Source: Escherichia coli
GTDB taxonomy: Bacteria; Pseudomonadota; Gammaproteobacteria; Enterobacterales; Enterobacteriaceae
Assembly: GCF_022846255.1 (NCBI RefSeq)
Contig: NZ_AP025682.1
Strand: one strand, 5' to 3'
Length of the DNA: 64,000 nt
Shown here: positions 5,638-48,619 of the stretch, in pieces
Layout of the letters: each line of letters begins with the position of its first letter
Numbering within the stretch: position 1 is the first letter of the stretch
Program-made: the position numbers and the translations under genes
The notes under the pieces: model-generated
What the model was told of the DNA's origin: nothing
The model's database searches: none
The model's input: the letters and a program-made list of their open reading frames with translations, nothing else

Positions 5638-7077
5638 TTACGACTGTAAATAAACCACCTGGGTCTGCAGATATTCATGCAAGCCATGTTTACCATCTGC
5701 GCCGCCAATACCGGATTTACGCCATCCAGCGTGGAAGCCTTGCATAGCTTCGAAGTTTTCACGGTTGATGTAAGTTTCACCAAACTTCAGCCCTTTAATG
5801 GCTTTCATCGCGACGTTCAGATTTTGGGTATAGATTGATGAGGTCAGGCCGTAATCACTGTCATTAGCCATTGAGATAGCCTCTTCCAGCGTGTCAAATG
5901 CGACCACCGGCAGAACCGGGCCAAAGGTTTCCTCATGCATAATCGACATTTCCTGGCGAACATCCAGCAGCAATGTCGGCGGATAATAATATCCTTTCCC
6001 CTCTACCGCTTTGCCACCCAACGCCACTCTCGCCCCTTCTTCTACTGCGCGCGCCACTTTTTGCTCAACCCTTTCCAGCGCCGCGGCGTTAATCAACGGT
6101 CCCATCGCAATGTCGTTGCGTTCAGCAGGGTTACCAAATTGAACCGCCTGCATCGCTTCACCCAGCCGATTGACGAACTGATCATAAATGCTTTTCTGTA
6201 CATAAACACGTTCTGCACAGTTACACACTTGCCCACTATTAATGACGCGTGAATCAACGATGGCTTTGACTGCCAGTTCAAGATCGGCATCGTCCATTAC
6301 GATAGCCGGTGCTTTACCCCCCAATTCCAGGCACACTTTGGTGATGTTTTTCGCCGCAGTCGCCATAATCTTTTCACCTGCAGAGACGCTGCCTGTCATA
6401 CTGACCATTGCGACCTTTGGGTTACCCGCCAGTTCTTGCCCAACGGTTTCACCACGCCCGAGTACAAGGTTAAACACGCCGCGCGGAAGGCCTATTTCAT
6501 CAACGATTTTGGCGAATGCAATCGCATTGTTTGGCGTAAATTCACTGGGTTTAATGACGATGGTATTACCGGTCAAAAGAGCGGGAGCCATTTTGCGGGC
6601 AATGAGGAAGAACGGAAAGTTCCACGGCAGAATGCCGGTAGTCACGCCAAGCGCACGTTTAAACAGAAGAATATTTTCTCCTGGACGATCGCTTTGAATA
6701 ATCTCGCCCTCGTAACGCCGTGCCCACTCCGCCATATAATCGATATAGTCCGCAGTAAAAGCCACTTCGACTTCAGCCAACTGCTGGATCTTGCCCCCTT
6801 CTTCGACAATCAGCGCACTGATTTCACTGGCACGTTCCCGGATCCCGGCGGAGATTTTGCGCAACCAACTGGCGCGTTCAATAGCAGGCAACGCTTCCCA
6901 TTCTGGTTGTGCACGTTCTGCTGCATCGATTGCCTTACGGGCATCCTCGGCCTGACCATCGGGAATGCGGGAAATGACAGCCTCTGTAGCAGGGTTTTCC
7001 ACATCAATCCATGCGTCTCCACGCCAGGTAACAAACTGTCCATCGATATACATAGGATGTTGAACGGGTACTGACAT
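5638..7077 (-). CDS. aldA: Lactaldehyde/glycolaldehyde dehydrogenase A, 479 aa
   Basis: 479 aa aldehyde dehydrogenase fold (catalytic Cys in GQVCNCAERVYV, ELGGKAP motif); length and neighbours match AldA. Confidence 0.9.
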   Translation of the reverse strand: MSVPVQHPMYIDGQFVTWRGDAWIDVENPATEAVISRIPDGQAEDARKAIDAAERAQPEWEALPAIERASWLRKISAGIRERASEISALIVEEGGKIQQLAEVEVAFTADYIDYMAEWARRYEGEIIQSDRPGENILLFKRALGVTTGILPWNFPFFLIARKMAPALLTGNTIVIKPSEFTPNNAIAFAKIVDEIGLPRGVFNLVLGRGETVGQELAGNPKVAMVSMTGSVSAGEKIMATAAKNITKVCLELGGKAPAIVMDDADLELAVKAIVDSRVINSGQVCNCAERVYVQKSIYDQFVNRLGEAMQAVQFGNPAERNDIAMGPLINAAALERVEQKVARAVEEGARVALGGKAVEGKGYYYPPTLLLDVRQEMSIMHEETFGPVLPVVAFDTLEEAISMANDSDYGLTSSIYTQNLNVAMKAIKGLKFGETYINRENFEAMQGFHAGWRKSGIGGADGKHGLHEYLQTQVVYLQS

Positions 7078-7273
7078 GGGCGACTCCTGTGATTTACATG
7101 TTTGTTTTTGGTAAATTTATTGTTAATTAACATCAATTATCAGAGAGACGGCATCGTGAAAGGACAATTCTGTGAAGGGCTTCATAAAAACAAGTGTAAA
7201 AGGAATTAAAGGCAGAAATAAAAGTCAGAAGTCATGCCCGTTTGCAAACAATTGGTTCACGAACGGGCAATTT

Positions 7274-8074
7274 TTAACGTAACGAGCGACTTTCCATCGC
7301 CTCGATGAGCACCGCATCGTGTTTCAGCGTTTGCCATGCCTGGATGACTTCTGCCGGAAAATCAACGTGAACGATAAAATCTCGCCCGCGGGGGCCGTAG
7401 CCATCGCTATCATCGCGTAAACGCGGCAGCTCGCCAGTGAGTAGCGATAGATAACGCTCAACCGGCCATAATCCTTGCAACGGATTAACAAAGATTACAC
7501 TGTCTGCGTTATTTCCTAACTGAGGAACGAATCCGGGATAACTTAACCAGCGTGGTGCATCGGGATTATCCCCGGTTATACGGCGGAACGTCGCCATCGT
7601 GCGCCGCTGCATGGTGGGGTCCTGAACAACGATAGCCGTATGAACTCGTTCTACGGCCTGATTCAATAGCGCGATGCTAAAGCGTGCGTTTTCACCGCAG
7701 TTTGTTGACTGGTCTTCAATCCAGATTTTTTCATGCGGAATATGCCAGAACTGATGAGCGATATCCGCCAGGATGGTAGCTTCAGCTCTGCCAGTGGTGC
7801 GGATAGTGTTGTAGTGTGGATGCTGTGCGATGGCGCTATACAAAAAAGTTGTCGAGTGACCGATACCACCACTAATCAGTAAAGGAATTTGCTGATCGCG
7901 GGCAATCTTACATGCCGCATCGATAGTCGGCATAACCGCATTGCCTGCAAGGATCACGCAATCGGCCTGATACGGCACCTCACCGGAGAAATCATCCTGC
8001 GCCAGCCACTGTCCGATAACATTTATGGCATCTATGGTTGCCGGCGAAAGCGTCGGAAACGGGGTAATATTCAT
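7274..8074 (-). CDS. ydcF: DUF218 family protein, 266 aa
   Basis: 266 aa ORF between aldA and hrpA, same length and position as K-12 ydcF. Confidence 0.8.
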
Positions 8075-8285
8075 GGTTCCTCCTTATCGTTCCCTTAAGA
8101 ATACTGCGTGAGATAATAGTGAGAAGCGGAGCACTCTGAAAGGAGGAAGTCGTATTTCCTTAACTGCCACTCCGCAAGCCTGACATATTTTTTAAGGAAA
8201 TGCTGTAGATAAACATTATTCATCTTGCAGCAGAGAATTGTATTTTTCTGAACTCCTGAATTTTTTCCCTTATCGTTTTTAGAAT

Positions 8286-8322
8286 TAATAAAAAACCCGG
8301 CGCTAAATGCTTACCGGGTTTT
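8286..8322 (-). terminator. Intrinsic terminator downstream of hrpA
   Basis: aacccgg...ccgggtt hairpin followed on the minus strand by a T-run. Confidence 0.5.
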
Positions 8323-8346
8323 AGATTTATCAGGCAAATAGCAGTG

Positions 8347-11300
8347 TTAACCGCTAATCTGCTCCATCGCCTGCAAAATACGCTTATCCGAAATCGGATA
8401 AGGCGTGCCAAGTTGTTGAGCGAAGTAACTAACGCGCAGCTCTTCTATCATCCAGCGGACCTCTTTCACGTCTTCATCCTCACGACGTGCAGGCGGTAGT
8501 TTGTTGATCCATTGCTGCCACGCCTGCTGGACGTTTTCGACTTTCAGCATCTGAGCACGGTCGCGATGTGGATCAATCGCCAGTTTTTCCAGTCGTTTTT
8601 CAATCGCCTGCAAATAACGCAGCGTGTCGCCCAGCCGTTTGAAGCCGTTACCAGTGACAAAACCGCGATACACCAGCCCGCCCATCTGCGCTTTAATGTC
8701 AGAAAGCCCCAGCGCCATGGTCATATCCACCCGCCCTTTCAGACGTTTGTTGATATTGAACACCGCAGTGAGGATTTGCTCGACCTGCTTCGCAATATCC
8801 ACCACTGTGTCGTTCAGTTCAGCGCGGACTTTTTCATGCAGCGCAGCAAAGCCTTCTTCCGTCCAGACCGGGCCACCATTGGCGTCGATCAGTTGATCCA
8901 CACCGCAGGAGATACAGTCGTCGATCAGCTCCAGCACTTTGCCATACGGGTTAAAGTACAGCCCCAGCTTGGCTTTGTTTGGCAACTTCTCATGCAAATA
9001 TTTGATTGGCGAGGGAATATTCAGCAGCAGTAAACGGCGAAGACCGTTCCACATTGCCTGCTTCTGTTCCAGCGGGTTATCAAACAGTTTGATCGCTACG
9101 CTGTCACGCTCATCCACCAGCGCCGGCCACGCCTTCACTTTGTAGTTGCCGCGCTTCTGCTCGTAGCTTTCCGGCAGTTGACCAAAACTCCAGATATGTA
9201 AACCGCTCTGCTCGATACCGTCATCCGCCACGGCAGACAGCGTTTCCTGCACTTTGCCTTTCAGGGCGTCTTTCAGATCCTGTAATGAGCGCCCTTCTTT
9301 TAGCTTCTTGTTTTTGTCATCCACCACGCGGAAAGTGATTTTCAGGTGATCGGGCACCTGATCCCAGTGCCAGTCTTCGCGGTCAACGGTGACGCCAGTC
9401 ATCCGCCGTAACTCTCGTTCAAGGCTGTCGAGCAACGGCAATTCCAGCGGTGTGACGCGGCCTAAAAACGCTTCGGCGTAGTTTGGCGCGGGCACAAAAT
9501 TACGGCGTACCGGCTTCGGCAGCGATTTAATCAGGGCGATGATCAGCTCACGACGCAGACCGGGGATCTGCCACTCAAACCCACTCTCCTCAACCTGGTT
9601 AAGTAACGGCAGCGGGATATGCACGGTCACACCGTCAGCATCCGCACCGGGCTCAAACTGATAGCTCAAACGCAGTTTGAGATTGCCCTGATGCCAGAAG
9701 TTCGGGTAATCCAGTTTGCTGATTTTTTCCGCCCCTTCTTTGATCAACATGCTCTTTTCAAAGTTGAGCAAATCAGGCGTTTCGCGGCTGACTTTTTTCC
9801 ACCAGCTGTCGAAGTGACGTGCGGAAATCACATCGTGGCTGATGCGCTGGTCGTAGAACTCAAACAGCGTTTCGTCATCCACCAGAATATCGCGGCGACG
9901 TGATTTGTGTTCCAGCTCTTCTACTTCCGCCCGTAGTTTCAGGTTTTCACGGAAGAATGCGTGACGCGTCTGCCAGTCACCTTCCACCAGCGCGTGGCGA
10001 ATAAAGAGTTCACGACATAACGCCGGATCGATCTGGCTGTAGTTGACCTTACGCGCAGCAACAATCGGCAACCCGTAAACAGTGACTTTTTCCGTTGCCA
10101 TCACCGCGCCCTGCGCCCGTTCCCAGTGCGGTTCGCTGTAGGTGCGTTTGATTAAATGCTGAGCGACAGGTTCCACCCATTCTGGATCGATGCGTGCCGC
10201 AATGCGCCCCCACAGGCGGCTGGTTTCTACCAGTTCCGCCACCATTACCCATTTCGGCGGCTTTTTGAATAAACCAGAACCGGGGAAGATGGAGAAACGC
10301 GCGTTACGTGCGCCGGTATATTCTTGTTTATCGGCATCTTTCATGCCGATATGCGAAAGCAAACCGGTCAGCAACGCAATGTGAATTTCGCGATAATCCG
10401 CCGGTTCGCTGTTAACCGGAATGCCAAGTTCTTTCACCACCTGGCGCAACTGGGTGTAGATATCCTGCCATTCGCGCACGCGCAGATAGTTGAGATAATC
10501 AGTACGACACAGGCGACGGAAGGCGTTTGAAGAAAGCGCCTTTTGCTGCTCGCCAAGATAATTCCACAGATTCACAAATGCCAGGAAGTCAGACTCTTTG
10601 TCGTGGAAGCGACGATGTTTTTCGTCAGATGCCTGCTGTTTATCCATCGGACGCTCACGCGGATCCTGAATGGAGAGCGCGGACGTGATAATCATCGCCT
10701 CACGCACGCAGCCATGTTTTTGCGCTTCCAGCACCATTCGCGCCAGACGAGGATCGACTGGCAGTTGCGAGAGCTGGCGACCGAGCGGCGTCAGTTTATA
10801 GGCGCTGGCCTGTTCATCAGTGGTGATCGCGCCCAGCTCTTCGAGCAGACGCACGCCATCCTGGATATTGCGTTTATCCGGTGCTTCGACAAACGGGAAT
10901 GCGGCGATATCGCCCAAGCCCAGTGCGGTCATCTGCAAAATAACCGAGGCCAGGTTAGTACGCAGAATTTCTGGGTCGGTAAACTCCGGGCGCGAGAGGA
11001 AATCGTCTTCGGAATAGAGACGAATACAGATCCCTTCTGACACACGACCGCAGCGGCCTTTACGCTGATTAGCTGAAGCCTGCGAAATTGGCTCAATCGG
11101 CAAACGCTGCACTTTGGTGCGATAGCTGTAGCGGCTGATACGCGCCGTACCTGGGTCGATAACGTATTTAATCCCCGGTACGGTCAGCGAGGTTTCCGCG
11201 ACGTTAGTCGCCAGCACAATGCGCCGTCCGCTGTGCGACTGGAAGACGCGGTTCTGCTCGCTGTTGGAAAGCCGTGCATAAAGCGGAAGAATTTCCGTAT

Positions 11301-12249
11301 GGCGTAAGTTCAGCTTGTTCAGCGCATCGGCGGTATCGCGAATTTCTCGCTCGCCGCTCATAAAAATCAGAATGTCGCCAGGGCTTTCCTGGCTCAGTTC
11401 ATCTACGGCATCGAAAATCGCCTGCAACTGGTCGCGCTCGGTGTCATCAGCTTCTTCAACAATCGGGCGATAGCGCACTTCCACCGGATAGGTCCGACCG
11501 GAGACTTCGATAATCGGCGCATTATTAAAGTGGCGCGAAAAGCGTTCCGGGTCGATAGTCGCGGAGGTGATAATAATTTTTAGGTCAGGACGCCGCGGCA
11601 GCAACTCTTTCAAATAGCCGAGGAGAAAATCGATATTCAGGCTGCGTTCGTGCGCTTCGTCAATAATGATGGTGTCGTACTGCATCAGCAGGCGGTCTTG
11701 CTGGATCTCTGCCAGCAGGATGCCGTCGGTCATCAGCTTGACCATCGTGTTATCACTGACGTGATCGCTGAAACGCACTTTGTAACCGATGCAACCGCCC
11801 GGCTCCGTTTTCAGCTCTTCCGCAATACGGTTCGCCACCGTTCTTGCCGCCAGGCGACGCGGCTGGGTATGGCCGATCAGCCCTTTAATCCCGCGCCCCA
11901 GCTCCATACAGATTTTCGGTAGCTGAGTCGTTTTACCGGAACCCGTTTCCCCGGCGACGATCACCACCTGGTGGTCACGAATCGCTTCGAGAATGTCCTG
12001 CTTTTTCTGACTAACCGGCAAATTGTCCGGGTAAGTAATCTCCGGTCGTGCCGCTTCACGCAGCAGGACTTTCCCTGCCGCATGGTCAATCTCTTTCGCC
12101 ATCTCCTGGAAAATGGCTTGTTGTGCATCAGGATTTTTAACCTTCTTCACACCGTGCAGACGGCGTAAAAAACGCTGTCTGTCGCGCAGCATCAGCGAAT
12201 CCAGCCGCTGCTGCAAGTCAGCAAAGGTCAATTTTTGTTGTTCTGTCAT
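8347..12249 (-). CDS. hrpA: ATP-dependent RNA helicase HrpA (DEAH-box), 1300 aa
   Basis: 1300 aa; Walker A GETGSGKTTQLP, DEAH motif (IIIDEAHERS), helicase C-terminal and HA2 regions. Confidence 0.95.
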   Translation of the reverse strand: MTEQQKLTFADLQQRLDSLMLRDRQRFLRRLHGVKKVKNPDAQQAIFQEMAKEIDHAAGKVLLREAARPEITYPDNLPVSQKKQDILEAIRDHQVVIVAGETGSGKTTQLPKICMELGRGIKGLIGHTQPRRLAARTVANRIAEELKTEPGGCIGYKVRFSDHVSDNTMVKLMTDGILLAEIQQDRLLMQYDTIIIDEAHERSLNIDFLLGYLKELLPRRPDLKIIITSATIDPERFSRHFNNAPIIEVSGRTYPVEVRYRPIVEEADDTERDQLQAIFDAVDELSQESPGDILIFMSGEREIRDTADALNKLNLRHTEILPLYARLSNSEQNRVFQSHSGRRIVLATNVAETSLTVPGIKYVIDPGTARISRYSYRTKVQRLPIEPISQASANQRKGRCGRVSEGICIRLYSEDDFLSRPEFTDPEILRTNLASVILQMTALGLGDIAAFPFVEAPDKRNIQDGVRLLEELGAITTDEQASAYKLTPLGRQLSQLPVDPRLARMVLEAQKHGCVREAMIITSALSIQDPRERPMDKQQASDEKHRRFHDKESDFLAFVNLWNYLGEQQKALSSNAFRRLCRTDYLNYLRVREWQDIYTQLRQVVKELGIPVNSEPADYREIHIALLTGLLSHIGMKDADKQEYTGARNARFSIFPGSGLFKKPPKWVMVAELVETSRLWGRIAARIDPEWVEPVAQHLIKRTYSEPHWERAQGAVMATEKVTVYGLPIVAARKVNYSQIDPALCRELFIRHALVEGDWQTRHAFFRENLKLRAEVEELEHKSRRRDILVDDETLFEFYDQRISHDVISARHFDSWWKKVSRETPDLLNFEKSMLIKEGAEKISKLDYPNFWHQGNLKLRLSYQFEPGADADGVTVHIPLPLLNQVEESGFEWQIPGLRRELIIALIKSLPKPVRRNFVPAPNYAEAFLGRVTPLELPLLDSLERELRRMTGVTVDREDWHWDQVPDHLKITFRVVDDKNKKLKEGRSLQDLKDALKGKVQETLSAVADDGIEQSGLHIWSFGQLPESYEQKRGNYKVKAWPALVDERDSVAIKLFDNPLEQKQAMWNGLRRLLLLNIPSPIKYLHEKLPNKAKLGLYFNPYGKVLELIDDCISCGVDQLIDANGGPVWTEEGFAALHEKVRAELNDTVVDIAKQVEQILTAVFNINKRLKGRVDMTMALGLSDIKAQMGGLVYRGFVTGNGFKRLGDTLRYLQAIEKRLEKLAIDPHRDRAQMLKVENVQQAWQQWINKLPPARREDEDVKEVRWMIEELRVSYFAQQLGTPYPISDKRILQAMEQISG

Positions 12250-12440
12250 AACGTTAGTGGGCAGTAGGCTGCCTGATTAATTTTCTTTTAAATGATAGAT
12301 ATAGAGTACCACATCGCGGCTTTCTATGCGTTGTTCAATAAATTCGAACATAGGCTTCGATTTATTGCGCTATCTCTGTGGCAGGATTGTGAATAAAGTG
12401 TCAACAAGCAACGGGGCATTGCCCATTCAAATATCTATAA

Positions 12441-13055
<615 letters not shown>

Positions 13056-13066
13056 GATTTATGATG

Positions 13067-13093
13067 CCTCCCACGAAAGTGGGAGGTTTTTTT
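13067..13093. terminator. Bidirectional intrinsic terminator between azoR and ydbC
   Basis: cctcccac-gaaa-gtgggagg hairpin followed by T7. Confidence 0.65.
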
Positions 13094-13095
13094 AT

Positions 13096-13962
13096 TTAAC
13101 CCGCCTTTTGCGCAATACTGTCCAGCGTTGCCAGCACGTCATCCGTTAGCACTAATTCATCGGACGCCATATTCTCCCGCAGATGCCCCACCGAAGAGGT
13201 GCCAGGAATCAACAAAATATTCGGTGAACGTTGTAACAGCCACGCCAGCGCCACCTGCATTGGTGTTGCACCCAGGCTCGTAGCAACATCGGAAAGCGTG
13301 GAGGATTGCAGCGGCGTAAAGCCCCCGAGCGGGAAGAACGGCACGTAGGCAATGCCATCACGAGCCAAAGCATCAATCATTGCGTCATCAGCACGGTGGG
13401 CAATGTTGTATTCGTTCTGCACGCAGACGATTTCGGCAATCTTTCGCGCCTCTGCAACCTGCGTCGGTGTGACGTTACTCAGGCCAATATGTTTTACCAG
13501 GCCTTGTTGTTGCATCTCCGCCAGCACTGTCAGGCTGGCCTCAATCGATCCTTCCGCTGGGCCATGACCATCCCCCATCATAACGCGCAGGTTAACCACA
13601 TCCAGTACGTCCAGGCCGAGATTACGTAGATTATCGTGTACCGCTTTTTGCAGCTCTGCCGGAGAAAATGCGGGTAACCAGGAAGCGTCCTCTCCACGCC
13701 GCGCACCAATTTTAGTGACAATTGTCAGGTCGTCAGAGTAAGGATAAAGCGCTTCGCGGATAATCTGATTGGTGACGTGCGGACCATAAAAGTCGCTGGT
13801 ATCAATATGATTGACGCCCAATGCCAGCGCCTCGCGCAGCACGGTTATAGCGACGTGGCGATCTCTTGGGGGGCCAAAAACCCCAGAACCAGCCAGTTGC
13901 ATCGCGCCATAACCAAGACGGTTAACGGATTTTGTACCGAGAGTAAATGTGTTGCTGCTCAT
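13096..13962 (-). CDS. ydbC: Aldo-keto reductase family oxidoreductase
   Basis: AKR fold (NHIDTSDFYG, catalytic Tyr/Lys context); position next to azoR matches ydbC. Confidence 0.8.
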   Translation of the reverse strand: MSSNTFTLGTKSVNRLGYGAMQLAGSGVFGPPRDRHVAITVLREALALGVNHIDTSDFYGPHVTNQIIREALYPYSDDLTIVTKIGARRGEDASWLPAFSPAELQKAVHDNLRNLGLDVLDVVNLRVMMGDGHGPAEGSIEASLTVLAEMQQQGLVKHIGLSNVTPTQVAEARKIAEIVCVQNEYNIAHRADDAMIDALARDGIAYVPFFPLGGFTPLQSSTLSDVATSLGATPMQVALAWLLQRSPNILLIPGTSSVGHLRENMASDELVLTDDVLATLDSIAQKAG

Positions 13963-14109
13963 CGCACCCTGCCCTGTAATAAAACGGATTAAGAAAAATC
14001 AGTATAGGAATGAATAGAGATAAATAATGCGAGGGTGTAAACAAGATTACTGGATGAGTAGCTCTAATATCCTGAAAGACACCAAAACAAGACGCGTCAA
14101 GTACCGCAT

Positions 14110-14149
14110 CCGGCAATAAAAAACCGCAACCTGTATCAGCGTTGCGGTT
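14110..14149 (-). terminator. Intrinsic terminator downstream of the paaY-like gene
   Basis: aaccgcaac...gttgcggtt hairpin followed on the minus strand by a T-run. Confidence 0.5.
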
Positions 14150-14162
14150 AAGGTATCACATG

Positions 14163-14783
14163 CTAAAAATTAGAACGTTCAGCATCTGGACGTGACTGTT
14201 TCGGTCGCAGATTCTCATCAAATACCAGACGCTGCCTGCCAGGTTCAACTTCCCGCAATGGCTCGACTTGATGCAACGTCTGCTTACAACGTGTCACCAG
14301 CACCTGATACTCATGCGTGCCCTGCTTTTTCCATGCCAGCTCCTGCTCACTAAGTTCACGAATCGCTTTTGCCGGGCTGCTGACAATCAGATAATTAGCA
14401 GGCATTTCTGCTTTGGCTTTCACAAATGCGGATGCGCCAACAATACTGTTCTCACCAATCACCGCACCGTCCATCACTACCGCGTTCATTCCCACTAACG
14501 CATTGCGGCGGATAATGCAGCCGTGAAGGATAGCGCTATGACCAATATGCCCATCTTCTTCAACGACAGTATCCTGCCCGGGAAAGCCGGGCATAACGCA
14601 ATTATCCTGAATGTTCGCGCCATCTTTCACCACGATACGACTAAAATCACCTCGCAGGCTGGCATTTGGTCCAACGTAAACGCCCTTGCCGAGAATAACA
14701 TCGCCGATCAATACCGCTGTCGGATGAACAAAACTCTCTTCTGTTACAATCGGAGTCAGACCGTCTATCTGATAAATTGGCAT
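14163..14783 (-). CDS. paaY: Hexapeptide-repeat (gamma-carbonic-anhydrase-like) protein, PaaY/CaiE/YrdA family
   Basis: Left-handed beta-helix hexapeptide repeats; N-terminus [11 protein letters not shown] resembles PaaY as recalled; genomic position corresponds to the end of the paa cluster, which is otherwise absent. Confidence 0.55.
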
Positions 14784-14889
14784 AACACCTCCTGTTCAAT
14801 ATTCAAACCGCCAAAACGTTGAAAATACAGGCTACCCGGCGAAGGCTGCTCACCGACCGAGGTTTCACCTTTTTCACTAACGAACGCTA

Positions 14890-15124
14890 CAGCAGCAGGC
14901 GCTACGCGCTGATAAAATTTGCCGATAAAGGTTTGGTGGTCGCGCAATATATTCGTAACCGTCGTCTCGATTTTTGTGCAGATGCGATTCGCCATGCCGC
15001 AGATGATGAAAAACTGGCAGGCATTGGCTTTCATTGGGGATTTTCCGACCAGAGTCATTTTTCAACGGTATTTAAACAACGCTTTGGGATGACGCCAGGC
15101 GAGAATCGGCGTAAATTCCGCTAA
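14890..15124 (+). pseudogene. C-terminal remnant of an AraC-family regulator (probably feaR 3' end)
   Basis: Only the last ~75 codons look like an AraC HTH (GFSDQSHFSTVFKQRFGMTPGENRR); no N-terminal domain; position between ydbL and paaY is where feaR lies in K-12. Confidence 0.45.
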
Positions 15125-18658: not shown

Positions 18659-19648
18659 ATGAAACTCGCCGTTTATAGCACAAAACAGTACGACAAGAAG
18701 TACCTGCAACAGGTGAACGAGTCCTTTGGCTTTGAGCTGGAATTTTTTGACTTTCTGCTGACGGAAAAAACCGCTAAAACTGCCAATGGCTGCGAAGCGG
18801 TATGTATTTTCGTAAACGATGACGGCAGCCGCCCGGTGCTGGAAGAGCTGAAAAAGCACGGCGTTAAATATATCGCCCTGCGCTGTGCCGGTTTCAATAA
18901 CGTCGACCTTGACGCGGCAAAAGAACTGGGGCTCAAAGTAGTCCGTGTTCCAGCCTATGATCCAGAGGCCGTTGCTGAACACGCCATCGGTATGATGATG
19001 ACGCTGAACCGCCGTATTCACCGCGCGTATCAGCGTACCCGTGACGCTAACTTCTCTCTGGAAGGTCTGACCGGCTTTACTATGTATGGCAAAACGGCAG
19101 GCGTTATCGGTACCGGTAAAATCGGTGTGGCGATGCTGCGCATTCTGAAAGGTTTTGGTATGCGTCTGCTGGCGTTCGATCCATATCCAAGTGCGGCGGC
19201 GCTGGAACTCGGTGTGGAGTATGTCGATCTGCCAACCCTGTTCTCTGAATCAGACGTTATCTCTCTGCACTGCCCGCTGACACCGGAAAACTACCATCTG
19301 TTGAACGAAGCCGCCTTCGATCAGATGAAAAATGGCGTGATGATCGTCAATACCAGTCGCGGTGCATTGATTGATTCTCAGGCGGCAATTGAAGCGCTGA
19401 AAAATCAGAAAATTGGTTCGTTGGGTATGGACGTGTATGAGAACGAACGCGATCTGTTCTTTGAAGATAAATCCAACGACGTGATCCAGGATGACGTATT
19501 CCGTCGCTTGTCTGCCTGCCACAATGTGCTGTTTACCGGGCACCAGGCATTCCTGACAGCAGAAGCTCTGACCAGTATTTCTCAGACTACGCTGCAAAAC
19601 TTAAGCAATCTGGAAAAAGGCGAAACCTGCCCGAACGAACTGGTTTAA
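18659..19648 (+). CDS. ldhA: Fermentative D-lactate dehydrogenase (NAD-dependent), 329 aa
   Basis: D-isomer-specific 2-hydroxyacid dehydrogenase fold (GVIGTGKIGVAM NAD-binding motif); 329 aa. Confidence 0.95.
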   Translation: MKLAVYSTKQYDKKYLQQVNESFGFELEFFDFLLTEKTAKTANGCEAVCIFVNDDGSRPVLEELKKHGVKYIALRCAGFNNVDLDAAKELGLKVVRVPAYDPEAVAEHAIGMMMTLNRRIHRAYQRTRDANFSLEGLTGFTMYGKTAGVIGTGKIGVAMLRILKGFGMRLLAFDPYPSAAALELGVEYVDLPTLFSESDVISLHCPLTPENYHLLNEAAFDQMKNGVMIVNTSRGALIDSQAAIEALKNQKIGSLGMDVYENERDLFFEDKSNDVIQDDVFRRLSACHNVLFTGHQAFLTAEALTSISQTTLQNLSNLEKGETCPNELV

Positions 19649-27572: not shown

Positions 27573-28279
27573 AGTCAGTCCCTGTGATTAACAACAAGGC
27601 ATAGTTAAACATATTTCACATTCAAACGTAAACATTATTAATAAAATTCTGTCAATCAAACTGACATCACGATTCAAGCCCTCTTCAAACTGAAGGTTAG
27701 AGCAGCGTAGAACATTTCAAAACAATACACTAAAAAAATACCCGAACAAAAAACTTAATTCTTTTTTATTGTGAACTTTAGTAATTTTGCCATGCAACTC
27801 TTTATTACATTTAGGCCTATCTTATTTCATGGCAACGCAGATACAGGACCATTTCTTGTGCTATGGATAAGTAATAAGCTAGTTACATCTTTTTAAGAGA
27901 ACCATTTTCACATATCAAGATATCATCACCACCCACAATGAATTAAGTATTTTTCTTATTCTTTAGATTAGATGCGTAATGAATCCCTAACTCCATTCGG
28001 GCGTTATGGCTCTTTCATTTGAAATACATTCATATCCAATGTAATATTTCCATGCGCAAATATAACTACCGACCATACTCATCATTTATTACAGAGAATT
28101 ATTTTATTCACCGAAAAGTTTCACAAAATATCCCCTGATAGAAAACTAAAAAACACTGCATAATATCGCTATTCTGGCACTTGCGAAAAATTATATTCTG
28201 CACCTGTTGTAGCGTTCTATTTCTCCGCCTGGCAACGAATGCACAATGTCCGCCACAGTTTCTGTTCTAATTTCTTCCT

Positions 28280-28588
28280 GTGTTACCGCATCCTGTACGG
28301 GTAGCGCAACACCAGCATGCTAAGCAAGGCTTTCCCATCAGATTTCACTACGACTATTTGGGAGCGAGATGGAATGCAGCAGTAAAACGTGCTGGTATTC
28401 GCCGCCGTAATCCGTACCATACGCGACATACTTTTGCCTGCTGGCTGTTGACGGCAGGAGCGAACCCGGCATTTATAGCCAGCCAGATGGGGCATGAAAC
28501 TGCGCAGATGGTGTATGAAATTTACGGTATGTGGATTGATGACATGAACGACGAACAGGTAGCCATGTTAAATGCGCGGTTATCGTAG
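28280..28588 (+). pseudogene. 3' fragment of a phage-type tyrosine integrase (intR-like remnant)
   Basis: Only the catalytic C-terminus is present (RRRNPYHTRHTFACWLLTAGANPAFIASQMGHETAQMVYEIYGMW with the conserved His/Arg/Tyr residues); the upstream part of the frame is not integrase-like; immediately 5' of ttcA, where intR lies in K-12. Confidence 0.6.
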
Positions 28589-41658: not shown

Positions 41659-41901
41659 GATGTAATCCTTGTGCAGACAAATTTCTTGTTACCTAAACGT
41701 AACAATACCATGACATTTTACCGTTGTCTGCTCTGAAAATCTCACCTCTTAGCTGGATTTACAATCAACGCATTGATTAGTTAGCTAATGTTGCAACTTC
41801 CTTCCCTGACTATTGATGATCTGAATGAATTGTCGCGGTAAAATAGTCCCGCCAGGGGTTTCCGGCATGACGACAATTATCTGGAGGAGCCTGATAAAAC
41901 A

Positions 41902-42983: not shown

Positions 42984-44597
42984 TTAATGCTTCACAATAT
43001 ACATAGTCCGACTGTACGCCACATCTTCAGGGTTATTAATGGGATAACCTTTCAGCCACGGCTTGATTAATCGTCCATTGGTATATTGATAAATTGGTGC
43101 AATCGGTGCTTGCTCCATGAGGATTTTTTCTGCCGCGTTGTAATCGGCATTACGCGCTTTAACGGTATTTTCCGTCGATGCCTGGGCCAGAACTTTGTCA
43201 TATGCCGGATTGTTAAAGCGTGAAATATTCCCGGAATGCGTTGACGTTAATAATGTCAGGAAAGTGGAGGGTTCATTATAATCCCCTACCCACGAGGCGC
43301 GGATAACATCAAAATTGCCGGTATTACGGCTATCGATATAGGTTTTCCATTCCTGGTTTTGCAATTTAACATCTACGCCCAGGTTCTTTTTCCACATCGA
43401 TGCTACAGCAATCGCAATTTTTTGATGGTTTTCTGAAGTGTTATACAAAAGCGTCAGCTTCAGCGGTTTTTGCGGACCATAACCAGCTGCGCTCAACAAA
43501 GTTTTTGCCTGCGCATTCAGTTCTTCCTGACTCATTTGTTCAAACGGCGAAGGTTCCGGCGTAAATCCCGCGGTAACATCTGGTGTAAAATGCCACGCTG
43601 GCTTTTCGCCCGTCCCCAACACTTTTTCGGTCATCAGGCGGCGATCTATCGTCATACTTAATGCCAGGCGAACGCGCTGATCTGCCGTCGGCCCTTTTTG
43701 CGTGTTAAACGCATAATAATAGGTCCCGAGCTGTGGCGGCGTATAAACCTGCCCCGGAATATCCTTCAACAACTTCTGATACATATTTTTCGGGAAGGAT
43801 TCGGTGATATCAATATCCCCCGCGAGATAACGCTTAGTGGCTGCGGATTCCTGATTAATTGGCAGGAAGGTCACTTTTTGCAGTACCGTTTTGGCGTTAT
43901 CCCAATAATGGGTATTCGGCACTACGACCAGTTTTTCATTGACTACGCGCTCTTTAAGAACATAAGCGCCATTGCCGATCAGATTTCCGGGTTTCGTCCA
44001 CTCTTTACTGCTTTCTACGTTGGCTTTTTGCACCGGGAAGAAGGCAAAGTTAGCGGTTAAATTCACAAACCACGGCAATGGTTTATCAAGCTGGATTTTC
44101 AAAGTATGGGCATCAACTGCGGTGACGCCAAGCTGGTCAGGCGCGGCTTTACCATCAATAATCGCCTGTGCGTTGTTGATTCCCGCCAGCGCGGCAAACC
44201 ATGCAAATGGCGATAGCGTTTTCGGGTCCACCAGACGTTGCCAGCTGTAGACAAAATCTTGCGCCGTTACCGGTGTGCCATCCGCCCATTTTGCGTTATC
44301 GCGCAGGGTAAAAGTCCAGATACGGTTGTCATTACTTTTCCACTGAGTCGCAACGCCGGGGACAATCTCCCCTTTCTCGTTCTGATTCACCAGTCCTTCA
44401 AACAGATCGCGAATGACCTGAATCTCCGGCAGGCCCACGGCTTTAGCGGGATCCAGCGACGCTGGCTCATCTTTAATGTGGCGCACCAGCTCCTGCTTCT
44501 CTGCCAGTACTGTGCCGCTCGGAACTTCAGCAGCATACGAAAGAGAAATGCTGCTGACCAACAGCGCACAACACGTGACTGAAACAGAGTGCTTCAT
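42984..44597 (-). CDS. mppA: Periplasmic murein tripeptide-binding protein (OppA paralogue), 537 aa
   Basis: Start at MKHSVSVTCCALLVSSISLSYA (signal peptide); family 5 solute-binding protein; 537 aa. Confidence 0.9.
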   Translation of the reverse strand: MKHSVSVTCCALLVSSISLSYAAEVPSGTVLAEKQELVRHIKDEPASLDPAKAVGLPEIQVIRDLFEGLVNQNEKGEIVPGVATQWKSNDNRIWTFTLRDNAKWADGTPVTAQDFVYSWQRLVDPKTLSPFAWFAALAGINNAQAIIDGKAAPDQLGVTAVDAHTLKIQLDKPLPWFVNLTANFAFFPVQKANVESSKEWTKPGNLIGNGAYVLKERVVNEKLVVVPNTHYWDNAKTVLQKVTFLPINQESAATKRYLAGDIDITESFPKNMYQKLLKDIPGQVYTPPQLGTYYYAFNTQKGPTADQRVRLALSMTIDRRLMTEKVLGTGEKPAWHFTPDVTAGFTPEPSPFEQMSQEELNAQAKTLLSAAGYGPQKPLKLTLLYNTSENHQKIAIAVASMWKKNLGVDVKLQNQEWKTYIDSRNTGNFDVIRASWVGDYNEPSTFLTLLTSTHSGNISRFNNPAYDKVLAQASTENTVKARNADYNAAEKILMEQAPIAPIYQYTNGRLIKPWLKGYPINNPEDVAYSRTMYIVKH

Positions 44598-44659
44598 AAG
44601 TTTCCCTCTAACCGACATTAAAATTGATGCGTAATTATTTGTTTCGCTTTAAAGAAATG

Positions 44660-44686
44660 CAAACAACTTCCATCAAAAAAGTGACA
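44660..44686 (+). repeat. Copy A of a ~27 bp imperfect direct repeat (caaacaacttccNNcaaaaaagtgaNa)
   Basis: caaacaacttccatcaaaaaagtgaca; 63-89 bp upstream of the mppA start codon; matches copy B at 47771..47797 in 24 of 27 positions. Confidence 0.6.
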
Positions 44687-44933
44687 AAGGAAGCATCAAA
44701 TGTTTTAAGTATCAATATATCAAATCAGATTTAGTGTAAATAATAGTCTCCAAAATGCGGTAAAGCACATAGAACTCCGAACACTACGTTCGGGCTTCGC
44801 ACATTCAAACCCGTTTTCGGTATCATAATCAGCATCTGTCGCCATTGTGCGAAGAATAAAAAATAACCAAAACGTTGAAAGGAACTGAGAATACGTTAAG
44901 AGAAGAATTAAATTAATGTATCAGCAAGTAGTG

Positions 44934-45833
44934 CTAAACAGCACCTTTATACTTCAGCCTATCTATAAATAATGAGAATGCCGAGCCAGCATGTCGACGG
45001 TGTGGATAGTACAGGTGATAACCGGGTAAATCTGGTGTGAATTTATCCAAAACACGTATCAGTTTTTTTTCTTTAATAGCCCGCTCAACCTGATCATAAG
45101 GTAGATACGCCAATCCATGCCCATCAATTGCAGCATCAATGATCAGGTCTATCGTATTCAGTAAAAGCTGACCTTCCATGCGAACACGAACTTCACGTCC
45201 ACCGCGTATTAATCTCCAGCGATTTGCTGTACCCGATGTGGGAAGATACAAATTAATTGCCTGATGATCTATTAATTGTGACACTGACGTTGGAGCACTT
45301 CGACGAGAAAAATAATCCGGTGAGCCAACAATAGCCATTGGTATGTCTGGCCCGATTCGAATGGCGATCATATCTTTATCCATCTCCCCACCCAGACGGA
45401 CGCCTGCATCAAAACGTTCAGAAACGACATCGGTCAAACCATAATCAATGGTAAGCTGAATATCAATTTCAGGATGCGATTTCAGGAATGTGCGCATAGC
45501 TGGTAACAATATCGTTTTTGCTGCATGTTCTACAGTAGTAATACGTATTGTCCCGGATGGGCGGTTCTGCAGATCGCTCAGGGAAGTCAGGGCAGAATCT
45601 ATGTCATGCAACATAGGGCCAAGAACAGACAAAAGATGCTCGCCCGCTTCAGTGGGTACAACGCTGCGCGTGGTTCGCGTCAGAAGCCGCAATCCCAATC
45701 GTTCTTCTATACGGCGCACTATCTGGCTTAAAGCTGACTGCGCCATGCTCAGGCGGGCTGCTGCGCGAGTGAAGCTACGCTCCTCTGCAACAACGACAAA
45801 CGCCATCAGATCAGCGATTTCTTCACGCTTCAT
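44934..45833 (-). CDS. ycjZ: LysR-family transcriptional regulator, 299 aa
   Basis: N-terminal HTH (FTRAAARLSMAQSALSQIVRRIE) and LysR substrate-binding domain; 299 aa. Confidence 0.85.
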   Translation of the reverse strand: MKREEIADLMAFVVVAEERSFTRAAARLSMAQSALSQIVRRIEERLGLRLLTRTTRSVVPTEAGEHLLSVLGPMLHDIDSALTSLSDLQNRPSGTIRITTVEHAAKTILLPAMRTFLKSHPEIDIQLTIDYGLTDVVSERFDAGVRLGGEMDKDMIAIRIGPDIPMAIVGSPDYFSRRSAPTSVSQLIDHQAINLYLPTSGTANRWRLIRGGREVRVRMEGQLLLNTIDLIIDAAIDGHGLAYLPYDQVERAIKEKKLIRVLDKFTPDLPGYHLYYPHRRHAGSAFSLFIDRLKYKGAV

Positions 45834-45853
45834 TCAGTATCTCCATACAATCT

Positions 45854-45899
45854 ATTAATCATTTAAATGATAGGTCTAATCATGATTTTGGGTCTAATC
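45854..45899. promoter_or_regulatory. Cluster of palindromic TAATCA-containing boxes in the ycjZ-ycjY divergent promoter region (candidate LysR-type binding sites)
   Basis: Perfect palindromes ATCATTTAAATGAT (45857..45870) and AATCATGATT (45877..45886), with a third taatca copy at 45893; read directly. Confidence 0.45.
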
Positions 45900-45970
45900 A
45901 ACTTAATGATCAATATCTATAGTGATATCACCAACCGTTAAAACGAACCGACAACTCCATGAGGAACGGA

Positions 45971-46891
45971 ATGATGAATAATAAAGTCAGCTTCACTAAC
46001 AGCAATAATCCAACCATCTCTTTGTCTGCAGTGATCTATTTCCCTCCAAAATTTGATGAAACCCGTCAGTATCCGGCAATTGTGGTATCTCACCCAGGTG
46101 GGGGCGTTAAAGAGCAAACGGCCGGAACCTATGCCGAAAAACTGGCGGAAAAGGGATTTGTCACTATTGCTTATGACGCATCTTATCAAGGTGAAAGCGG
46201 CGGCGAGCCGCGTCAGTTAGAAAACCCATACATTCGTACTGAAGACGTCAGTGCCGTGATTGATTACCTGACAACGCTTTCTTATGTCGACAATACCCGA
46301 ATTGGTGCGATGGGAATTTGTGCCGGTGCAGGATATACAGCCAATGCTGCAATTCAGGATCGCCGCATCAAGGCCATCGGTACTGTTAGTGCGGTCAATA
46401 TTGGTTCGATGTTCCGTAATGGTTGGGAAAACAATGTGAAATCTATTGATGCCCTACCATACGTTGACGCGGGTTCAAACGCCCGAACCAGCGATATTAG
46501 CAGCGGAGAATACGCCACTATGCCACTGGCACCAATGAAGGAGTCCGATGCGCCGAACGAAGAACTGCGTCAGGCCTGGGAATATTACCACACCCCTCGC
46601 GCGCAGTATCCAACAGCACCGGGTTACGCTACTTTGCGCAGCCTTAACCAGATTATTACCTATGATGCTTACCATATGGCGGAAGTGTACCTGACTCAGC
46701 CGATACAGATTGTGGCGGGCAGCCAGGCTGGGAGCAAATGGATGAGTGACGACCTGTACGATCGAGCATCAAGCCAGGATAAACGCTATCACATTGTTGA
46801 AGGCGCAAACCATATGGATCTTTATGATGGCAAAGTCTATATGGCTGAAGCAATTTCAGTATTAGCTCCGTTCTTTGAGGAAACTCTGTAA
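45971..46891 (+). CDS. ycjY: Alpha/beta-hydrolase (dienelactone-hydrolase-like), 306 aa
   Basis: Start at MMNNKVSF after a gagg RBS; hydrolase fold with nucleophile elbow (GICAGAG); 306 aa. Confidence 0.85.
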   Translation: MMNNKVSFTNSNNPTISLSAVIYFPPKFDETRQYPAIVVSHPGGGVKEQTAGTYAEKLAEKGFVTIAYDASYQGESGGEPRQLENPYIRTEDVSAVIDYLTTLSYVDNTRIGAMGICAGAGYTANAAIQDRRIKAIGTVSAVNIGSMFRNGWENNVKSIDALPYVDAGSNARTSDISSGEYATMPLAPMKESDAPNEELRQAWEYYHTPRAQYPTAPGYATLRSLNQIITYDAYHMAEVYLTQPIQIVAGSQAGSKWMSDDLYDRASSQDKRYHIVEGANHMDLYDGKVYMAEAISVLAPFFEETL

Positions 46892-46961
46892 TGAAACATA
46901 TTCAAATCCGTAATAGTGATATGGCCTGGCATATTGCTGCCAATAATCTGGGAAAAGTTTC

Positions 46962-47600
46962 ATGAAAAATGTACTGATTCTTGGTGCTGGCGGTCAGATA
47001 GCCCGCCATGTGATTAATCAACTGGCAGATAAACAAACCATTAAACAAACTTTATTTGCCCGTCAGCCAGCAAAAATCCACAAACCCTATCCAACTAATA
47101 GCAAGATTATTATGGGGGATGTACTGAATCATGCAGCATTGAAGCAGGCCATGCAGGGACAGGATGTTGTGTATGCCAACCTTACGGGGGAAGATTTAGA
47201 TATTCAGGCAAATTCAGTGATCGCTGCGATGAAAGCCTGTGATGTTAAACGTCTGATCTTTGTTCTTTCCCTCGGTATTTATGATGAAGTTCCAGGAAAA
47301 TTTGGCGAATGGAATAATGCAGTTATTGGTGAACCCCTAAAACCATTCCGCAGGGCTGCGGATGCAATTGAGGCTTCTGGACTGGAATATACAATTCTTC
47401 GCCCTGCCTGGCTGACTGATGAAGATATTATTGATTATGAGCTTACCTCACGCAATGAACCATTCAAAGGTACGATCGTATCACGTAAGAGTGTCGCAGC
47501 ATTAATCACAGATATCATCGATAAACCTGAGAAACACATTGGTGAGAATATAGGCATCAATCAACCCGGGACTGATGGTGATAAGCCCTTCTTCATGTAA
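46962..47600 (+). CDS. ymjC: NAD(P)-binding Rossmann-fold protein (NmrA/SDR-like), full-length 212 aa
   Basis: N-terminal GAGGQIARH dinucleotide-binding motif; uninterrupted here, whereas ymjC is recalled as a pseudogene in K-12. Confidence 0.7.
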   Translation: MKNVLILGAGGQIARHVINQLADKQTIKQTLFARQPAKIHKPYPTNSKIIMGDVLNHAALKQAMQGQDVVYANLTGEDLDIQANSVIAAMKACDVKRLIFVLSLGIYDEVPGKFGEWNNAVIGEPLKPFRRAADAIEASGLEYTILRPAWLTDEDIIDYELTSRNEPFKGTIVSRKSVAALITDIIDKPEKHIGENIGINQPGTDGDKPFFM

Positions 47601-47770
47601 ATCAATTATATAGCTACCATCGTACTGTACTATGTGCAGTACGATTTATTAAACTTATTAAGGTGAACTGATCAATCAGATGCGATTAACATGTGTAGAA
47701 CCAGTAAGAATAAAATACGCCATGTATATAACATTACGACAATTCTAATATCTGCACATCAATGAAAATA

Positions 47771-47797
47771 CAAACAACTTCCGGCAAAAAAGTGATA
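47771..47797 (+). repeat. Copy B of the ~27 bp imperfect direct repeat
   Basis: caaacaacttccggcaaaaaagtgata; 94-120 bp upstream of the mpaA start codon. Confidence 0.6.
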
Positions 47798-47890
47798 CAA
47801 GATCGATGACATAGCGTTGAAGAAAAGGATTTGATAATCCGCAAAATTTGCACAACACTGCCTGTAATACTTCCTGAACCAGAGACGATC

Positions 47891-48619
47891 ATGACCGTAA
47901 CTCGCCCACGCGCCGAACGCGGCGCATTTCCGCCCGGAACAGAACATTACGGACGTTCATTATTGGGCGCGCCGTTAATCTGGTTTCCGGCCCCTGCAGC
48001 CAGTCACGAAAGTGGTTTGATTCTGGCTGGCACTCACGGTGATGAAAACTCTTCGATCGTCACGCTCTCCTGTGCTCTGCGGACTTTGACACCTTCTTTG
48101 CGCCGCCATCATGTGGTGCTGTGTGTGAATCCTGACGGCTGCCAGTTAGGGTTACGGGCCAATGCTAATGGTGTGGATTTAAACCGAAACTTTCCGGCAG
48201 CGAACTGGAAGGAAGGTGAAACAGTTTATCGCTGGAACAGCGCCGCTGAAGAACGTGATGTTGTATTACTGACAGGTGACAAACCTGGCTCCGAACCTGA
48301 AACCCAGGCGCTGTGCCAGCTTATACACCGCATTCAACCTGCCTGGGTGGTCTCATTCCACGATCCGCTGGCCTGTATTGAAGATCCCAGACACAGCGAA
48401 TTAGGTGAATGGCTGGCCCAGGCGTTTGAATTGCCTCTGGTAACCAGCGTCGGTTATGAAACGCCTGGCTCTTTCGGCAGTTGGTGTGCAGATCTCAACT
48501 TGCATTGCATCACCGCAGAGTTTCCACCCATCTCCTCCGACGAAGCCAGCGAAAAATATCTCTTTGCGATGGCAAACTTGCTGCGCTGGCATCCTAAAGA
48601 TGCAATTCGCCCGTCGTGA
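47891..48619 (+). CDS. mpaA: Murein peptide amidase A (zinc carboxypeptidase family), 242 aa
   Basis: Start at MTVTRPRAERG; zinc-binding HGDE motif; 242 aa. Confidence 0.85.
   Translation: MTVTRPRAERGAFPPGTEHYGRSLLGAPLIWFPAPAASHESGLILAGTHGDENSSIVTLSCALRTLTPSLRRHHVVLCVNPDGCQLGLRANANGVDLNRNFPAANWKEGETVYRWNSAAEERDVVLLTGDKPGSEPETQALCQLIHRIQPAWVVSFHDPLACIEDPRHSELGEWLAQAFELPLVTSVGYETPGSFGSWCADLNLHCITAEFPPISSDEASEKYLFAMANLLRWHPKDAIRPS

Follow-up and report, generated by a model that had tools for sequence, protein, structure and literature searches.

In the classic LysR-type operator (reviewed in PMC11495319), one dimer is anchored at a highly symmetric regulatory site near -65, and less symmetric activation sites lie over the -35 of the target promoter. 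The anchor also lies over the regulator's own promoter, which leads to negative autoregulation, and the behaviour of such operators is described by a 'sliding dimer' model. A poor -35 is typical of activator-dependent LysR targets (PMC11495319).

The regulator studied here had been called uncharacterised in a sequence-only reading of the region. That description is outdated: genomic SELEX led to YcjZ being given the name PgrR (Shimada, Yamazaki and Ishihama 2013, Genes Cells 18:123), and RefSeq uses this name. PMC5934670 places a gSELEX peak for PgrR at ycjY/ycjZ. The curated PgrR regulon comprises ycjY-ymjDC-mpaA, ycjG and ycjXF-tyrR (PMC5934670), and PgrR is described in the literature as repressing ycjY-ymjDC-mpaA and ycjG. 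The other K-12 gSELEX targets (leuO, pheP, ydjE and others) are AT-rich loci, known to the level of the gene only.

In the DAP-seq data of Baumgart 2021, as reproduced in PMC10505187 (Supplementary Data 6), the PgrR signal at the pgrR promoter is 5632-fold, which exceeds that of LacI at lacZYA (4413) and dwarfs another DAP-seq value for PgrR. By PPTP-seq, knock-down of pgrR raised the activity of the pgrR promoter, which was confirmed with a tunable-TF strain, and the authors placed a PgrR site on that promoter (PMC10505187). The ycjY promoter showed a weak, non-significant rise on pgrR knock-down in three media (0.60, 0.28 and 0.34; PMC10505187). That PgrR interacts with the pgrR-ycjY spacer is therefore already known. 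A base-level operator was not found in the accessible literature, which did not extend to the texts of Shimada 2013 and Baumgart 2021, and a full-text search for the dyad sequence described below returned a single match, in an unrelated context (human gastric cancer). Relative to the accessible literature, what is new here is the dissection into arms and spacer, the three-site geometry and the conservation across bacterial classes.

The pgrR-ycjY locus

The window, meaning the whole 64-kb stretch of DNA that was analysed, is part of an E. coli chromosome, and 2.1 kb of it is 100% identical to strain STEC299. The features that define the locus are:

44934-45833, minus strand: pgrR (ycjZ), encoding a LysR-type regulator of 299 aa; RefSeq name pgrR
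45834-45970: the pgrR-ycjY spacer, 137 bp, 34% G+C, which holds all of the boxes
45971-46891, plus strand: ycjY, encoding an alpha/beta hydrolase, the divergent target gene; RefSeq name ycjY

The boxes, at 45855-45912, lie within the spacer and hence, as the sequence-only reading had placed them, between a LysR gene and a divergent hydrolase gene. The regulator gene and divergent ycjY were paired in all lineages examined. As the K-12 spacer differs from that in the window by a single base, located outside the boxes, the K-12 literature is directly applicable to the window. When 44500-48000 was compared with Rfam, no family match was returned, and the only sub-threshold match was inside the pgrR coding sequence (24 bits vs a gathering score of 41).

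Boxes and palindromes in the spacer

Both of the perfect palindromes claimed previously were found. The first, ATCATTTAAATGAT at 45858-45871, is 14 bp and is one of only three palindromes of at least 14 bp in the 64-kb window, and the second, AATCATGATT at 45878-45887, is 10 bp. Copies of TAATCA start at 45856, 45877 and 45895. The third copy, also claimed previously, ends at 45900, 1 base beyond the interval first reported, and it supplies the left arm for another ATCA-N6-TGAT dyad (45897-45910, within TAATCAACTTAATGAT at 45895-45910), offset from the first by 39 bp. This second dyad had not been noted, nor had GGTCTAATCA, an exact 10-nt direct repeat at 45873 and 45891 (18 bp apart), or a third perfect palindrome, GTGATATCAC, at 45922-45931.

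The spacer was subjected to 20,000 dinucleotide-preserving shuffles (5,000 for the repeated 10-mer), with the following results:

Three palindromes of at least 10 bp: P = 0.0014
Three copies of TAATCA: P = 0.0027
Nine ATCA/TGAT words: P = 0.0013
Two ATCA-N6-TGAT dyads: P = 0.00005
One repeated 10-mer: P = 0.016 (5,000 shuffles)

The repeated TAATCA boxes are confirmed as real and not a product of chance.

When the window was scanned for TAATCA-N6-TGATTA-like sites with matches at 10 or more of the 12 positions, none was found upstream of mppA, mpaA, ycjG or ycjX. The search upstream of mppA and mpaA that the sequence-only reading had proposed thus yielded no such box, and, as ycjG and ycjX lack the dyad, the effects of PgrR reported for these two genes are not explained by it. 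The 11/12 match at 41762-41779, between ynaJ and ynaI, may have arisen by chance, as five exact ATCA-N6-TGAT sequences are found outside the pgrR-ycjY spacer in the 64 kb.

Candidate sites and predicted promoters

From the arrangement of the boxes we infer three individual sites and, from the predicted promoters, the positions of the two transcription start sites:

45855-45873: site 1, putative anchor (regulatory) site, TTAATCATTTAAATGATAG; built around the perfect dyad ATCA-N6-TGAT (45858-45871)
45876-45892: site 2, candidate inner activation site, CTAATCATGATTTTGGG; includes the AATCATGATT palindrome at 45878-45887
45893-45912: site 3, candidate promoter-proximal activation site, TCTAATCAACTTAATGATCA; includes the second dyad at 45897-45910
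45867-45896, minus strand: predicted pgrR promoter; -35 TAGACC (45896-45891), 18-nt spacer, -10 TATCAT (45872-45867)
45918-45923, plus strand: predicted ycjY -10, TATAGT; predicted start at ~45930
45922-45931: third palindrome, GTGATATCAC, with the arms reversed (TGAT followed by ATCA), over the predicted ycjY start

Site 2 might alternatively be read, from its sequence, as ATCA-N6-TGGG (45879-45892). Relative to the predicted ycjY start, site 1 is centred at -65.5, site 3 at -26.5 and site 2 at -47.5, or at -44.5 if the alternative reading is adopted.

The predicted pgrR promoter, TAGACC-18-TATCAT, was obtained from a consensus scan and is a consensus match only. Shimada 2014 had predicted the same promoter from an RpoD-holoenzyme SELEX peak in the spacer. 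Site 1 overlaps its -10, which is inside the right arm of the site. Site 3 overlaps the predicted ycjY -35 and, in its left part, the predicted pgrR -35 (TAGACC, minus strand). The predicted ycjY -35 is TAATCA, which agrees with the consensus at 3/6 positions and is poor in every lineage aligned. For ycjY, Shimada 2014 predicted a different promoter, ATGATA-19-TCTAAT; if that promoter is used, site 1 would lie near -40.

Conservation of the block

The sequence-only reading had made the boxes depend on conservation in orthologous spacers, and this was found: the block at 45853-45923 is kept in alignments of related spacers. A scan of the genomes of 100,044 species identified relatives with 85-99% protein identity in Citrobacter, Kluyvera, Pseudocitrobacter, Serratia, Shimwellia, an Escherichia species and a MAG. 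In six representative lineages, the mean pairwise nucleotide identities were:

Block 45853-45923: 88%
pgrR leader: 26%
ycjY leader: 58%
Third codon positions of the flanking genes: 59-66%

Of 5220 E. coli genomes, 4476 have the 71-bp block unchanged, and in one block variant that was sampled the sole change is C45894 to T.

As several of the 88% relatives represent one mobile lineage, the search was extended to more distant ones. A tblastn search of plasmids identified regulators that are 61-74% identical in Rhizobium tropici, Agrobacterium fabrum, Kozakia baliensis and A. pusense, and in every case a gene for a YcjY orthologue (80-85% identity) lies divergently beside the regulator gene. Eight lineages with regulators of 69-100% identity, ranging from enterobacteria to plasmids of Alphaproteobacteria, could be aligned without gaps over ~70 bp when anchored on the first dyad. 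The bases invariant in all eight are TTnATCA-N6-TGATAnG, ATT, TCTAATC-N5-AAT and CTA of a TAnnnT hexamer, and TCTAATC lies at a constant offset of 39 bp from site 1 in every one. The central 6 nt of site 1 vary (TTTAAA, TCTCAA, CCTCAG or CTCCAG), while its arms and the spacing of 6 are constant. Constant arms with a drifting spacer are the hallmark of a protein that binds DNA as a dimer and recognises a pair of half-sites. On the same grounds, the perfect palindromy of site 1 is incidental, and it is the arms that count.

The other sites are less uniform. The left arm of site 2, CyAATCA, and the TTTTGGG stretch are kept in the enterobacterial versions. The right half of site 2, TGATT, varies (TTATT, TAATC or CAATT), and only the ATT at 45885-45887 is invariant across all lineages. 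In most related spacers AATCATGATT is replaced by a sequence that is not palindromic (AATCATTATT, AATCATAATC, AATCACAATT or TATCGTGATT). The second palindrome, which had been put forward as a box in its own right, therefore loses that status, since a palindromy that is not kept indicates that the palindrome itself is not the recognised unit. The right arm of site 3 is degenerate in the alphaproteobacterial versions. CTATAGT is invariant in 11/11 enterobacterial sequences, and the alphaproteobacterial versions have TAnnnT at the same position of the gapless alignment. The third palindrome, GTGATATCAC, persists intact in E. coli and Serratia PL17 and almost intact in two other lineages, and has been lost from the Klebsiella/Citrobacter type.

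Where the dyad has been kept, the winged-helix region of the regulator (residues 20-60) hardly varies between lineages. In a 58% relative, the recognition helix is changed, the dyad is degenerate and a new palindrome is present.

A candidate PgrR operator

We consider it very probable that the boxes are the PgrR operator, with the classic three-site LysR layout set inside back-to-back divergent promoters. The case joins the conservation and geometry described above to the autorepression and region-level binding reported in the literature. The sequence-only reading had seen here the classic arrangement for autoregulation and target activation by a LysR-type protein. The predicted layout matches the classic operator, and negative autoregulation has been published, but target activation does not agree with the literature, in which PgrR represses ycjY and is not an activator.

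In the model that we propose, site 1 would be the high-affinity anchor, with the core ATCA-N6-TGAT within TTnATCA..TGATAnG. One PgrR dimer would touch both arms, leaving the six central bases unread. As site 1 lies over the predicted -10 and start of pgrR, its occupancy would block RNA polymerase there and so produce negative autoregulation, and we infer that site 1 mediates the autoregulation that has been published. The second dimer of the tetramer would occupy sites 3 and 2, which lie downstream and are weaker and less symmetric. In the uninduced state it would sit on site 3, over the poor ycjY -35, and keep ycjY expression low, in agreement with the published repression. A ligand would move this dimer from site 3 to site 2, freeing the -35 and allowing PgrR to activate ycjY. 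This last step, the ligand-driven shift to activation, is modelled on BenM, CbnR and DntR and would apply to PgrR by analogy.

Several observations count against the operator model. The other reported PgrR targets in the window, ycjG and ycjX, are without the dyad, and the knock-down data give neither strong repression nor activation of ycjY. The dyad is T-N10-A where T-N11-A is canonical, and the ycjY promoter predicted in Shimada 2014 would move site 1 to near -40. In addition, the predicted -10 and -35 of pgrR take in several of the invariant bases (TGATA and GTCTA), and part of the conservation may thus reflect promoter function.

Alternative explanations

PgrR could instead be a plain repressor, for which site 1 is the off-switch for pgrR and site 3 that for ycjY, with derepression achieved by release from the DNA. 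This is possible, though we regard it as doubtful. It is in keeping with the RefSeq product name in K-12, 'DNA-binding transcriptional repressor PgrR', with the repression of ycjY-ymjDC-mpaA and ycjG listed in the literature and with the increased activity of the pgrR promoter on knock-down. However, the predicted ycjY -35 (TAATCA, 3/6) is poor in every lineage, and removal of PgrR barely lifts the ycjY promoter, when a competent promoter held down by PgrR alone should rise. A promoter that depends on an activator accounts for the poor -35 and the slight derepression better than a plain repressor does, although repression is all that has been reported.

That the conserved boxes are mainly the core elements of two overlapping divergent promoters, perhaps recognised by sigma-E, with the dyad symmetry as a by-product, is improbable. 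RNA polymerase holoenzyme alone does bind the spacer in SELEX (sigma-70; sigma-H, 4.4; sigma-E, 17.2), TGATA in site 1 and GTCTA in site 3 are the predicted pgrR -10 and -35, and the invariant TAnnnT is a -10. However, the left arm of site 1, TTnATCA, is invariant even though its position is beyond the predicted pgrR -10, on the downstream side, and symmetric arms held at a constant 6-bp spacing around a drifting spacer are not what promoter hexamers would lead one to expect. The ATCA-N6-TGAT dyad is also repeated 39 bp away (P = 0.00005), and promoter elements leave the 5632-fold DAP-seq signal of PgrR at the pgrR promoter to be accounted for. Despite the strong RpoE-holoenzyme SELEX peak, no match to the sigma-E consensus (GGAACTT, 15-17 nt, TCnnA) was found on either strand of 45801-46000.

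It is most unlikely that the boxes bind another regulator such as Fur. The AT-rich TAATCAT/ATGAT words resemble the Fur box, GATAATGATAATCATTATC, and the best match in the spacer is 13/19 (45869-45887), but 24 other places in the window, mostly intragenic, also score 13/19 and none reaches 16/19 or more. The spacer match is therefore not distinctive against the window background, and the Fur box was rejected. Moreover, on plasmids and chromosomes of Alpha- and Gammaproteobacteria alike the motif accompanies the regulator gene, which fits a cassette-encoded regulator and not a global regulator of the host.

Finally, that the palindromes are chance products of an AT-rich spacer is scarcely conceivable: the spacer is only 34% G+C and ATCA/TGAT words are commoner across the whole window than in shuffles, but the local shuffle P values range from 0.0014 to 0.00005, and the boxes have been kept across classes of Proteobacteria and while the flanking leaders became saturated with changes.

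A mobile cassette around pgrR-ycjY

A block shared by the regions upstream of mppA and mpaA contains 23 identical specified bases (44660-44684 and 47771-47795). There are exactly two copies per E. coli genome, and both are in the same orientation although mppA and mpaA are divergent. A direct repeat of ~31 nt brackets pgrR-ycjY-SDR between mppA and mpaA. When a synthetic join of the left flank to the right flank was used to search for the empty site, 173 E. coli genomes, those of IAI39 and CE10 among them, matched it as one unbroken piece with 98-98.5% identity. In these 173 genomes mppA adjoins mpaA, with a 182-bp spacer between them. The pgrR-ycjY region is present in 5242 genomes.

The gene content of the cassette differs between strains. 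In O157:H7 the full four-gene cassette is found, made up of the regulator, a hydrolase, a second hydrolase (frameshifted) and the gene of an SDR oxidoreductase. The strain that the window comes from is without the second hydrolase, and K-12 is also without most of the SDR gene, the remnant of which is annotated as ymjD and ymjC. A hairpin with a 12-bp stem follows the SDR gene (47619-47645; -16.2 kcal/mol, z-score -3.7). Its U-tract is weak, and it was not flagged by a scan for consensus terminators. A 660-bp deletion of the type found in K-12 takes out the hairpin, and the deletion junction is present in 2293/5426 genomes.

On Klebsiella, Rhizobium, Agrobacterium and Kozakia plasmids, the regulator-hydrolase-hydrolase core adjoins IS or integrase genes. 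The SDR gene is present in Klebsiella and R. tropici, where the sequence extends far enough. Homology to the E. coli copy has the stop codons of pgrR and of the SDR gene as its exact limits. Among the lineages examined, murein-tripeptide genes are found beside the cassette in Escherichia only.

Judged by these sequence comparisons, the operator belongs to a mobile cassette that the majority of E. coli carry and some lack. The 'ycjY-ymjDC-mpaA operon' of K-12 may be due to a putative insertion together with the 660-bp deletion. It may even be, though we lean slightly away from this, that PgrR is the resident regulator of a mobile four-gene cassette that carries its own operator, and not primarily a regulator of peptidoglycan recycling. 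In that case the published link between PgrR and mpaA would merely follow from where the cassette sits, and in K-12-type strains the 660-bp deletion would have added to it by removing the hairpin, and the ligand or substrate would be ester- or lactone-like instead of a murein fragment.

As originally posed, the operator finding matters little, since the name of the regulator, its binding region and its autoregulation have been published for years. The base-level model, in which ATCA-N6-TGAT arms enclose a free spacer and the three sites keep fixed offsets, would make it possible to design arm mutants, to build a biosensor and to search for the ligand. The cassette is a by-product of the analysis that is more novel than the operator itself, and it cautions against treating the K-12 PgrR regulon as an evolved peptidoglycan-recycling circuit.

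Comparison with known LysR-type systems

The pgrR-ycjY spacer shares its general plan with the operators of BenM/CatM (ATAC-N7-GTAT), CbnR and DntR. The genes are divergent in both cases, and there is one highly symmetric dyad near -65, here relative to the predicted ycjY start. Less symmetric sites are found downstream, over what is here the predicted target -35, with site 3 at 39 bp from site 1 and site 2 between the two. As in those systems, the anchor would lie over the promoter of the regulator, here a predicted one, and for PgrR negative autoregulation has been published.

The dyad itself departs from the classic form. It is of even length, ATCA-N6-TGAT or T-N10-A, whereas the classic LysR dyad is a 13- or 15-bp T-N11-A. 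The symmetric pair in site 1 is T45859/A45870, and T-N11-A pairs are found only off the dyad axis. The spacings between the PgrR sites, 18/21 or 21/18 bp according to the reading chosen for site 2, also differ from those of the classic LysR system. Unlike the classic ligand-activated systems, PgrR has been reported only to repress.

The nearest characterised relatives of PgrR are the YafC, GcvA and AaeR models and the AphB and CrgA structures, with which it shares the ordinary LysR fold, an N-terminal winged helix and a C-terminal effector domain. All of the matches are far under the family cut-offs (for YafC, 140 bits vs 470), and no operator can be transferred from YafC, GcvA, AaeR, AphB or CrgA. 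The closest described system is K-12 PgrR at the ycjY/pgrR spacer, which is the same locus, and for which region-level binding and negative autoregulation have been published.

A direct repeat brackets the cassette

In the window, the pgrR-ycjY-SDR cassette, which comprises the LysR-type regulator gene pgrR (ycjZ), the divergent hydrolase gene ycjY and an SDR oxidoreductase gene, is bracketed by two copies of a direct repeat with the sequence AAATrCAAACAACTTCCnnCAAAAAAGTGA.

44654-44684 and 47765-47795: direct repeat, about 31 nt (core 44660-44684 and 47771-47795), one copy upstream of each of mppA and mpaA

The repeat is present in exactly two copies in each E. coli genome, with the exception of the genomes that are free of the cassette. 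In 173 E. coli genomes, including IAI39 and CE10, there is a single copy of the repeat, the cassette is absent and mppA adjoins mpaA. As the repeats bracket the cassette and only one copy is found in cassette-free genomes, we conclude that the cassette is an insertion, or that it has been lost precisely via recombination between the repeats.

Cassette variants in E. coli

The SDR gene is intact in the window strain, which lacks the second hydrolase gene; O157:H7 retains this gene in a frameshifted form. K-12 has undergone a 660 bp deletion (window approximately 47100-47760; 6600-6933 in L017, the K-12 locus), which has reduced the SDR gene to the remnants ymjD and ymjC and brought ycjY close to mpaA. 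The K-12-type junction is shared by 2293 E. coli genomes out of 5426, and the deletion also removes a hairpin that lies beyond the SDR gene.

47619-47645: hairpin with a 12 bp stem, beginning 19 nt past the SDR stop codon and followed by UUAUU

Folding gave -16.2 kcal/mol and a z-score of -3.7 for the hairpin, which was not flagged in a scan for consensus terminators. It may be a terminator that insulates mpaA from the cassette operon.

The unit in other organisms

A conserved mobile unit that includes the regulator, and consists of the LysR regulator gene divergent from a hydrolase gene and a further hydrolase gene, was seen in the loci compared (L019, L021-L024 and L025; window 44934-47600). 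Wherever the available sequence extends to it, namely in Klebsiella, R. tropici and O157, the SDR oxidoreductase gene is also part of the unit. Plasmids of Klebsiella, Rhizobium, Agrobacterium and Kozakia carry the unit, adjoining IS or integrase genes, and its homology with E. coli (approximately 79% nucleotide identity) extends exactly from the pgrR stop codon to the SDR stop codon. Among the loci compared, MppA and MpaA are its neighbours only in Escherichia.

The regulator leader

In the spacers of the alphaproteobacterial versions (L019, L021, L022 and L023), the anchor dyad, ATCA-N6-TGAT, directly adjoins the regulator gene, with 2-3 nt between it and the annotated start codon, which implies that the regulator mRNA would be leaderless or near-leaderless there. 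Enterobacterial versions have an additional, unconserved leader of approximately 10-25 nt; that of E. coli is 24 nt and contains GGAG.

Further dyads and variation in the spacer

Two further symmetrical sequences were found.

41762-41779: CAATCAACGCATTGATTA, ynaJ/ynaI spacer
45922-45931: GTGATATCAC, third perfect palindrome, with reversed arm order, covering the predicted ycjY start

The first matches ATCA-N6-TGAT perfectly and, through its extended arms, TAATCA-N6-TGATTA at 11/12 positions; it may be an additional site for PgrR or may have arisen by chance. The second is conserved in some lineages only. In the conserved 71 bp block of the pgrR-ycjY spacer, 743 genomes have one to three differences from the window. 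A C to T change at window position 45894 in E. coli EC21Z-083 generates GGGTTTAATCA, making the left flank of site 3 (45893-45912) like that (TTAATCA) of site 1, the anchor dyad.

Other annotations in the window

An 8.3 kb open reading frame (6729-15044) is named 'EntS/YbdA MFS transporter' in RefSeq, which is implausible for so large a protein (2771 aa). In the window strain, ldhA is an annotated pseudogene missing its N-terminus, and the neighbours of ttcA are mere fragments of an integrase gene and a DUF1627 gene (sites noted for these two observations, 18818-19645 and 28229-28588). In K-12, the position adjoining ttcA that these fragments occupy is that of the Rac prophage.
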